Of a DNA stretch of 64,000 nt, positions 39,353 to 40,082 are shown piece by piece. The stretch covers positions 2,112,001-2,176,000 of the forward strand of contig CBDBEV010000001.1 in NCBI GenBank assembly GCA_965204535.1, in the 5' to 3' direction. The first letter of the stretch is position 1; each line of letters starts with the position of its first letter. This DNA comes from a bacterium. Its GTDB lineage: Bacteria > UBA8248. A program made the translations under genes and the position numbers. The notes beneath the pieces are model-generated. The model had not been told where the DNA came from. It ran no database searches and saw only the letters and a list, made by a program, of their open reading frames with translations.

Positions 39353-39381
39353 TTGACGAAGACTCGGAACAGTGGCATAGT
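39353..39381 (+). promoter_or_regulatory. Sigma70-type promoter of the small RNA-NYN unit
   Basis: TTGACG, 17 nt, CATAGT with an extended -10 TG; same spacing in the second copy. Confidence 0.65.
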
Positions 39382-39387
39382 TTTTTC

Positions 39388-39449
39388 ACTACTCCCCCAG
39401 TGGTTTCGACCGCTGGGTGCGGGGCCTCTCATGAGGCCCTGCTTTTTTT
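39388..39449 (+). ncRNA. Candidate structured small RNA (hairpin plus terminator) upstream of the NYN gene
   Basis: CCCAGTGGT-TTCG-ACCGCTGGG, then GCGGGGCCTC-TCAT-GAGGCCCTGC-T7. 44/49 identical to copy 2, with a compensatory change. Confidence 0.6.
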
Positions 39450-39458
39450 AGGTAAGAC

Positions 39459-40082
39459 ATGCGGACTTATATCTACGTCGATGGATTCAACCTCTACTAC
39501 CGCTCGCTGAAGCAAACGCCGTTCAAATGGCTTGATCTTTCCGGGCTGTTTCGTGACGTGTTGAAGCCCCACCACGATATCCTCAAAATCAAATTCTTCA
39601 CAGCGCGCGTCTCGGCGCGGCCTAACGATCTATCTGCACCGCAACGCCAGGACACTTATTTACGAGCGTTAAAACACTATTGCCTGGAGGTTGAAGTTTA
39701 TTATGGGCATTTTCTGACGCATAAGATTCAAGCGCCGCTTGCCGATACCGGCAACAGGCGAAGGCTGGTGAATGTCGTCAGGACCGAGGAGAAGGGATCG
39801 GATGTCAATCTCGCCGTTCATCTCCTGAACGATGCATGGCTGGATGACTACGACTGTGCGGTAGTAGTTACGAACGACAGCGATATCGCAGAGGGCATGC
39901 GTCTTGTGAAAAAGCACAAAAGAAAATGGATTGGACTGGTAACACCCGGCACGAGTCATCCGTCTCGAGAGTTAATGACCCATGCGGACTTCTCCCGTCG
40001 AATTCAAAAGAGTGCGCTGCGAAAGAATCAGCTTCCGTCCCCGATTCCGGGCACCAACATCACCAAGCCTGCCAACTGGTGA
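39459..40082 (+). CDS. NYN/LabA-DUF88 PIN-like ribonuclease domain protein
   Basis: YVDGFNLYY, EEKGSDVNLA...DA, TNDSD acidic active-site motifs. Confidence 0.9.
   Translation: MRTYIYVDGFNLYYRSLKQTPFKWLDLSGLFRDVLKPHHDILKIKFFTARVSARPNDLSAPQRQDTYLRALKHYCLEVEVYYGHFLTHKIQAPLADTGNRRRLVNVVRTEEKGSDVNLAVHLLNDAWLDDYDCAVVVTNDSDIAEGMRLVKKHKRKWIGLVTPGTSHPSRELMTHADFSRRIQKSALRKNQLPSPIPGTNITKPANW

Follow-up and report, generated by a model that had tools for sequence, protein, structure and literature searches.

PIN-fold toxins, e.g., VapC, are textbook partners of protein antitoxins, which neutralize them. RNA antitoxins that act by protein binding have been described for few toxin folds, i.e., the ToxN type, the HEPN protein AbiF and the AvcD deaminase. 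In the ToxIN/AbiQ, CptIN and TenpIN systems, as described in the accessible sections of PMC13682666, a promoter, an RNA and a rho-independent terminator precede an endoribonuclease gene, the repeats that make up the antitoxins have a central H-type pseudoknot, and the toxins form the ToxN, CptN and TenpN families. In C. difficile AbiF-RCd22, according to the accessible text of 10.1101/2025.04.15.648962, the RNA contains one or two motifs and neutralizes the ribonuclease in cis and also in trans, where it binds directly; that paper cites the abiF motif as one that, likewise, began as a computational prediction of an RNA motif. Here, we identify a predicted small RNA of ∼60 nucleotides (nt) and the NYN/PIN-fold ribonuclease gene that directly follows it as a candidate RNA-protein toxin-antitoxin (TA) module. 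Both lie in a stretch of 64,000 nt (assembly GCA_965204535.1, contig CBDBEV010000001.1, positions 2,112,001 to 2,176,000; hereafter, the window) from a bacterium of the UBA8248 lineage, the close relatives of which are uncultured bacteria that their records assign to Nitrospinota. A preliminary description of the window, made from its letters alone, had proposed an RNA antitoxin in the manner of type III TA systems. We favor this proposal with a rough probability of 0.65, in the form of an RNA antitoxin that, by analogy with AbiF, would bind a PIN/NYN toxin of the HEC-09-like family. It is supported by conservation of the RNA with NYN homologs, by covariation and by restricted copy number, and further by RNAs in nonleader positions, by tandem repeats and by survival of the RNA after loss of the nuclease.

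Relation to described systems

The locus has the plan of ToxIN/AbiQ, TenpIN and CptIN that the preliminary description had invoked, i.e., a promoter, an RNA, a terminator and a single nuclease gene, and the family to which it belongs also has their occasional tandem repeats and their carriage on plasmids and prophages (accessible sections of PMC13682666). An RNA locus with a promoter and an intrinsic terminator beside a single candidate toxin gene is a class feature of type III TA systems, and it is found here. Unlike the antitoxins of those systems, however, the NYN-associated RNA consists of two nested hairpins including the terminator stem, is usually single and has no supported pseudoknot; and unlike their toxins, the candidate toxin of the window gives only NYN in Pfam and has the NYN/PIN fold. 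In its workings, the proposed system would be most like AbiF-RCd22, with which it shares one promoter, a short structured RNA, an intrinsic terminator and read-through into a single ribonuclease gene, as well as its presence on prophages and plasmids (accessible text of 10.1101/2025.04.15.648962). It differs from AbiF in three respects. The toxin has a HEPN (Abi_2) domain there and the NYN fold here, where neither Pfam nor PADLOC gives an Abi_2/HEPN match; the NYN-associated RNA has no match to the abiF motif RF03085; and it also occurs in divergent, convergent or downstream positions. The system of the window is outside the ToxIN, CptIN, TenpIN and AbiF families.

Two further systems bear on the comparison. 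AvcID, likened here by its description in the accessible text of PMC10511110, is a type III system in which, as we propose for NYN, an RNA antitoxin is paired with a toxin that does not belong to the ToxN families, except that its toxin is a deoxycytidylate deaminase. HEC-09 belongs to the same protein family as the window NYN protein and has a MARF1-like NYN active site; in the accessible text of 10.1101/2024.01.29.577857, it is a single-gene candidate, found embedded in Hma defense loci, for which no defense was seen and no RNA partner is mentioned. Full-text searches, which did not extend to subscription journals and bioRxiv supplements, found no paper that links an NYN protein to an RNA antitoxin, so that an earlier description is possible. 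NYN, LabA and DUF88 do not appear in the main text of PMC5737381 (Weinberg et al. 2017); abiF is absent from it too, the motifs being listed in the supplement.

A conserved RNA family upstream of NYN genes

The RNA family is real, conserved, apparently undescribed and tied to a large nuclease family. The elements that the preliminary description had read at the locus, i.e., a TTGACG-17-TG-extended CATAGT promoter, a UUCG hairpin and a T7 terminator ending 9 nt before the ATG of an intact NYN gene, all lie where it had placed them (Table 1). The RNA starts with a short single strand, ACUACUCC, followed by stem 1 (39396-39417) with its UUCG loop, a one-base (U) linker, stem 2, which is also the intrinsic terminator (39419-39442), and a U7 tract (39443-39449), 9 nt after which the NYN gene starts with the ATG at 39459. 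The minimum free energy of the RNA region is -38.2 kcal/mol (z = -6.0), and none of 200 shuffled sequences was equally stable. The open reading frame encodes 207 amino acids (aa) and matches Pfam NYN with E=4e-8.

The comparative checks that the preliminary description had called for, i.e., conservation upstream of NYN homologs, a covariance model built from these upstream regions, a comparison with Rfam and a count of copies in the genome, all came out in its favor. Each of the 47 genome loci retrieved with the protein (34-96% identity) has the two-hairpin unit immediately before NYN, and covariance model R1 scores 46 of the 47, many of which were used in training it. The records of these loci name Nitrospinota, Pseudomonadota, Thermodesulfobacteriota, Acidobacteriota, Spirochaetota, Chloroflexota, Gemmatimonadota and Patescibacteria; with Actinomycetota, added by further loci, the RNA-NYN pair is spread over at least nine phyla. 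Both stems of the RNA covary. In a MAFFT/RNAalifold alignment of 44 sequences that was not fitted to a model, a double change is present at 16 of 16 pairs. In an alignment of 107 distinct sequences that was fitted to the model, and in which relatedness inflates the covariation figures, 94.4% of cells are paired vs. 75.0% in shuffled alignments, double changes number 409 vs. 123, and 18 of 19 pairs have a double change, with slid controls at 38-55%. Per-pair tables contain all four Watson-Crick types at several positions. Unpaired bases are conserved as well, with an A at -4 (79%), a C just ahead of stem 1 (97%), a pyrimidine as linker and a U bulging from stem 2 (85%). Loop 1 is UUCG (G in 100%), and loop 2 is free to vary in length. 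A search of Rfam with the window RNA gave no family (best E 0.45; with a limit of E<=5, the one match over the RNA is to Atu_C8, at chance level with E 0.56), and the RNAs of 17 related loci gave none at gathering score. Finally, blastn and the covariance model both find just two copies of the RNA in the 4.56-Mb genome (76 and 67 bits with the model, the next best match having 14.5 bits). With two copies, it is neither a repetitive extragenic palindromic (REP) element nor a generic terminator.

Taken alone, the window promoter is a 9/12 match only, and five such sites were found vs. 3.5 expected from shuffles. The call carries more weight because the hexamer positions are conserved across the family: over 106 upstream regions, TTG(A/C) occurs 65 times at -44..-39 and TAnnnT occurs 67 times at -20..-15, numbered from the conserved C preceding stem 1. 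Moreover, the promoter hexamers are kept in four of seven close relatives, in which the spacer is down to 71-76% identity. Transcription is predicted to start at ∼39388-39391.

More distant clades (28-45% identity) have a promoter, an ACCC-type start, a hairpin and a terminator, as recognized by eye and by folding. On a protein tree made by a quick method (101 rows, L432 having been dropped as too short), a subtype of the RNA with a GCRUGC loop groups together. RNA subtype follows protein clade, a pattern that kinship alone could produce. A pattern scan for this subtype found NYN in five of six viral matches, all five already obtained in the protein search. Two loci from the genus of the window (L509 and L510; genomes G021 and G020) have a second NYN clade with a GCGUGC-loop RNA; therefore, both RNA subtypes occur within one genus. 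At L009 (2387-2502), stem 2 is lengthened by a nested hairpin of ∼45 nt with the junction unchanged, and the top of stem 2 is therefore dispensable. Beside distant NYN genes, L104 and L105 have a clean promoter, a single hairpin and a U-tract just downstream of the gene, and L063 and L491 have a divergent two-hairpin unit; judging from their layout, it is possible that these four units are minimal versions of the RNA.

Linkage of the RNA and the nuclease

The association was found from the side of the RNA as well as from that of the protein. A metagenome scan with the RNA pattern yielded at least 119 loci, some of them redundant; in 88 of the 119 listed, a match to the NYN hidden Markov model (HMM) lies directly downstream on the same strand, and six of the other 31 listed are flagged as short NYN remnants. 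Starting from the protein, two sets independent of the 47 genome loci were examined. An adjacent R1 match (E<0.001) is present in 32 of 49 viral loci with NYN. In 151 Chloroflexota genomes, all 25 examined NYN genes of at least 150 bits have an adjacent RNA; one of these loci is the seed, five of the RNAs score 15-48 bits with filters off, and a 26th gene was left out. Unlike the window NYN family, five distant LabA-like NYN genes in the Chloroflexota sample have no adjacent RNA (best score 11.7 bits). No intact NYN gene without the RNA was seen in the core clade. RNA matches do not exceed four per genome in 302 genomes from two phyla.

The two partners are not lost equally. Among 67 RNA-first loci with enough flanking sequence, an NYN intactness filter accepts 31 and rejects 19, and the remaining 17 show no NYN match; the filter is strict, four of the rejected loci being covered by the HMM over its full length. 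In several relatives from the same genus, the RNA is kept and NYN is reduced to its first 12-45 codons. That the RNA outlives the enzyme, and rarely the reverse, is what one would expect of a harmless antidote paired with a harmful enzyme and speaks against a toxic RNA. RNA-seq contigs of other strains (two runs, 5% of words) include one of 514 nt that spans the RNA and NYN of a relative, such contigs being unable to show ends or levels.

Position and number of RNA units

The RNA is upstream of NYN in 80 of the 108 loci of the curated alignment and in 20 of the 25 Chloroflexota loci; in the other five Chloroflexota loci, it is divergent (three), convergent (one) or downstream on the same strand (one). 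Convergent RNAs are found on a Paenarthrobacter plasmid, in a Mycobacterium prophage and in G175, divergent RNAs in L088, G104, G103, G091 and G099, with a provirus among the divergent cases, and an RNA downstream of NYN on the same strand in G082. The Paenarthrobacter and Mycobacterium RNAs, which were found by eye and then used in model training, sit behind a TTGACA hexamer of their own, and nonleader RNAs mostly have recognizable promoter hexamers. On the protein tree, the nonleader layouts are dispersed. When viruses were scanned a second time with the mycobacterial protein, no further convergent loci came to light. A pure leader cannot explain this position independence, and we infer from the arrangement of the loci that the RNA acts as a product and not solely as a leader.

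The RNA unit is usually single, and repeats occur in a minority of loci only. Two tandem units are present in L048, in L067 and in four of the 25 Chloroflexota loci. L049 (CP057030.1) has four tandem GGCG(U/A)GCC hairpins at 577-715 (33-nt period, 2.6 copies by TRF), followed by a terminator and NYN. CP057030.1 is a ColE1-type E. coli plasmid of 4.6 kb with NYN as its main cargo; its other annotated genes are mobilization genes, Rop and one hypothetical protein.

The NYN protein family

The window NYN protein matches the PADLOC profile of HEC-09 (PDLC04163) over its full length (residues 2-207; E=6e-41), and nine of nine relatives tested match the same profile. Across 42 homologs, the acidic residues D8, E110/E111, D115, D140 and D142 vary little or not at all, and the protein is basic (pI 9.7). 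The AlphaFold2 (AF2) model, with a predicted local distance difference test (pLDDT) value of 90.6, aligns with VPA0982, an NYN protein of the LabA/DUF88 type (2qip; VIA Z 15.6, root-mean-square deviation [rmsd] 3.0, 156 aligned), and with the NYN domain of MARF1 (5yaa, 6fdl; VIA Z 15.0, rmsd 2.9, 147 aligned). Fold and acidic active site are common to these proteins at 13-19% identity, and no sequence relatives of the window protein were found in the PDB. Eukaryotes, too, use NYN domains, in proteins for RNA decay and for antiviral activity (MARF1, KHNYN). The enzyme is under purifying selection, with dN/dS at 0.08-0.13 in eight of nine pairs, the ninth pair being saturated.

The HEC-09-like family has many members. 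With clustering at 90%, 7,915 of 7,999 candidates scored, and 5,582 clusters remain at 50% identity with E<=1e-10, part of them outside the RNA-bearing clade. NYN matches occur in 455 plasmid records, and the carriers include prophages and small ColE1-type plasmids (3.5-4.6 kb) that contain few further genes. In two relatives (L056:574-1530 and L058:595-1569), NYN is fused to a C-terminal Xre/MbcA/ParS antitoxin domain, and a hairpin-terminator unit lies upstream. DefensePredictor DS-3, a 340-aa protein with the working id PIN8, was considered as a member of the same family and set apart by its description (PMC13092281). PHROG 7929 has no function assigned in the database.

Proposed mechanism and alternative explanations

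We suggest a model in which the promoter would make an abundant terminated RNA of ∼60 nt and in which, in the upstream layout, a minority of transcripts reading through the terminator would yield NYN mRNA, so that the RNA stays in excess. By analogy with AbiF, termination probably also sets the RNA-to-protein ratio in this layout. The basic enzyme may recognize the conserved unpaired and junction bases named above (at -4, directly ahead of stem 1, in the linker and at the bulge of stem 2), and the UUCG loop and the terminator stem would give the RNA stability. Bound RNA would hold the NYN ribonuclease inactive. As in ToxIN and AbiF, an arrest of transcription upon phage take-over or upon loss of the plasmid or prophage would let the RNA decay and free the nuclease, which would then cut cellular RNA and arrest growth, with addiction and/or abortive infection as the outcome. 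We also lean, by a small measure, toward a large family of PIN/NYN RNA TA systems, in which thousands of HEC-09-like nucleases would each have a clade-specific, free-standing hairpin RNA.

The upstream layout, which dominates in both the curated alignment and the Chloroflexota, would equally suit a leader or attenuator that acts in cis, i.e., a terminator that merely limits NYN, perhaps with feedback of NYN on its own leader and with no neutralization in trans. Moreover, RCd22 of AbiF too works in cis via termination (accessible text of 10.1101/2025.04.15.648962). Such a leader is nevertheless unlikely given that the fold is kept in divergent, convergent and downstream positions, mostly together with promoter hexamers, that no consistent set of other genes follows the RNA, and that stem 1 and the unpaired bases are conserved across phyla beyond the needs of termination. 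Nor does the RNA have a conserved alternative fold, pairings of the C-run being without covariation support. The preliminary description had raised the alternative that the 5' C-run pairs with the GGGG arm of the terminator as an antiterminator or pseudoknot, and this part of it did not stand: 78.0% of cells are paired vs. 77.2% in shuffled alignments for the 5' arm of stem 2, and C15-G60 is broken in 46 of 107 sequences. Pairing of the C-run with the 3' arm of stem 2 showed no excess over shuffles either, and both pairings were rejected. We likewise regard it as improbable that the RNA is an activating cofactor, a guide or a preferred substrate of a nontoxic or conditional NYN ribonucleoprotein, e.g., a sensor complex. 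Position independence and covariation show just that the RNA product matters, and cloned HEC-09 is not reported as toxic in the accessible text of 10.1101/2024.01.29.577857, both of which fit such a complex. However, the RNA contains no variable, guide-like segment matching the cognate gene, it persists after enzyme loss while the reverse is rare, relatives fuse NYN to an antitoxin-type domain, and a terminator between the RNA and the gene would keep the RNA in excess.

The remaining two explanations are far less probable. In the first, the C-rich 5' end of the RNA would act in trans as a type I-like antisense against the ribosome-binding site of NYN or against its coding region. In favor of it, the 5' ACUCCCCC looks like an anti-Shine-Dalgarno sequence, and in L088, one of the seven nonleader loci, the RNA pairs better with its own start region (-17.1 vs. 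-7.5 kcal/mol). Yet the C-run is mostly locked in stem 1 by covarying pairs, the other six nonleader loci show no consistent advantage, and 60 pairs give no cognate advantage (mean z -0.03), with a longest perfect match of 7.4 nt in cognate vs. 7.2 nt in noncognate combinations. In the absence of a cognate bias, antisense to the NYN start or coding region was rejected, and it is very improbable. Hardly credible is the second, according to which a generic terminator, a REP-like repeat or a mobile palindrome merely happens to lie beside NYN genes. Orphan copies in genomes and phages would fit such an element, but each of the two copies in the 4.56-Mb genome is tied to an NYN gene or its remnant, RNA-first loci in metagenomes mostly lead into NYN (88 of the 119 listed), and the limit of four matches per genome in 302 genomes from two phyla is at odds with a repeat.

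Several observations weigh against an RNA-protein TA module. In the accessible text of 10.1101/2024.01.29.577857, HEC-09 protected against none of the phages tested and is not among the systems reported as toxic on induction. Another cloned NYN gene, NYND from E. coli (WP_001399740.1), which may belong to the same family, scored as nondefensive in DefensePredictor (PMC13092281) and likewise gave no phage protection. These negative screens lower the claim of a defense function more than that of an antitoxin. Ten of 25 examined Chloroflexota RNA matches of at least 34 bits have no NYN within 1.5 kb. With a loose viral pattern, NYN is beside only two of 15 model-confirmed loci; therefore, the fold also exists apart from the gene. 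No other gene consistently follows these orphan RNAs. Conversely, family members L064 and L103 have no adjacent RNA, and in L057, a helix-turn-helix (HTH) gene lies between the RNA and NYN. In the quick tree, the starred branches force no more than one origin of divergent or convergent layouts. Finally, HspA, a hydroxylase of the nicotine pathway, is the annotation given to some distant relatives; the HspA/NicB hydroxylase labels on L056 and L058 may be mis-annotation. We rejected a hydroxylase function, which is annotated on distant relatives only; a search of NCBIfam with the window protein gave no match.

If the RNA-protein TA reading is correct, an RNA of 60 nt that inhibits a PIN/NYN nuclease would represent a new RNA-enzyme pairing, found in at least nine phyla and on small E. 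coli plasmids. Because of its presence on these plasmids, it is directly testable in a laboratory strain, and the L049 plasmid is a ready experimental model. The pairing would provide a function for thousands of "NYN domain-containing proteins" and would suggest why single-gene candidates such as HEC-09 clone without harm. The precedent of AbiF indicates that such systems can seed RNA-guided nucleases.

Phage copies without the nuclease

Ten viral contigs (L526-L535), which fall into few related groups, have the RNA fold (39-53 bits) with no NYN up to 3 kb on each side, and two complete phage records (G050, G051) have the RNA with NYN nowhere in the genome. The second loop of the phage copies is GGGGAAACC, and several copies are followed by a further structured stretch. 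In one phage record, two RNA copies flank tRNA genes (tRNA-Arg, tRNA-Lys). The phage-type RNA gave no match among GenBank phages. Phage ToxI mimics are a precedent for decoy antitoxins. By this analogy, we tentatively consider, while thinking it doubtful, that the nuclease-less phage RNAs are decoys, in which case they would point to RNA-based counterdefense. They may instead be members of phage RNA clusters.

The locus, its second copy and the speB hot spot

Table 1. Features of the RNA-NYN locus and of its orphan copy, in positions of the window.
Feature	Positions	Strand	Basis or remarks
speB 3' end (∼54 nt)	39283..39336; repeats 40121-40174 and 43624-43677	+	NYN cassette between the first two
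Sigma70-type promoter	39353..39381	+	TTGACG 39353-39358, 17 nt, TG-extended CATAGT 39376-39381
Small RNA of ∼60 nt, predicted; candidate antitoxin	39388..39449	+	Fold, covariation; 5' end inferred
NYN/PIN-fold predicted ribonuclease, 207 aa, HEC-09-like; candidate toxin	39459..40082	+	Pfam PF01936, PADLOC
Promoter-like site of the orphan unit	42236..42264	+	TTGACG, 17 nt, CATCCT; read from sequence, aligned with copy 1
RNA copy 2, decaying, nuclease gene deleted	42269..42329	+	44/49 identity; 66.7 bits with model R1; fold z=-5.5
3' remnant of lost NYN gene (ITKPANW, then stop)	42733..42757	+	23/25 nt identical to 40058-40082

The preliminary description had noted a second RNA copy at 42272-42320, and what it had said of this copy was borne out: the identity is as noted, stem 1 has a compensatory change (A39399-U39414 to G-C), and the other three changes are in or near loops, affecting the loop-closing pair and both loops. 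Copy 2 shows signs of decay, i.e., a basal-pair G that is 98% conserved has changed to A and the U-tract is short. A 25-nt remnant of the end of an NYN gene follows ∼400 nt past it. As read from these traces, copy 2 is the remains of a second RNA-NYN cassette.

The GC content of the intact cassette is 52% vs. 66% in the speD-speB operon. Copies of the speB end bracket NYN and, in turn, a membrane protein, an EEP nuclease, HigBA and the orphan RNA, and the same speB-end duplications flank the NYN cassette in relatives from the same genus. From these duplications, the locus looks like a site of repeated insertion at the speB 3' end. The HigBA type II TA pair (41570-42187) appears intact and lies directly before the orphan RNA copy. 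The membrane protein (120 aa, 40176-40538), which follows the second speB-end copy, has no Pfam match, and a decayed copy of its start (43678-43749) follows the third.

Elsewhere in the window, intergenic regions (35519-35704, 34824-35474 and 47458-47604) contain an inverted repeat that is perfect over 40 nt, together with several palindromic repeats of the CGTCATTCCGGC type, which are probably REP-like elements. Two ankyrin-repeat proteins with signal-peptide-like starts are encoded at 30408-31073 and 43910-44845, the second being confirmed by Pfam; ankyrin-repeat proteins are typical of sponge symbionts.

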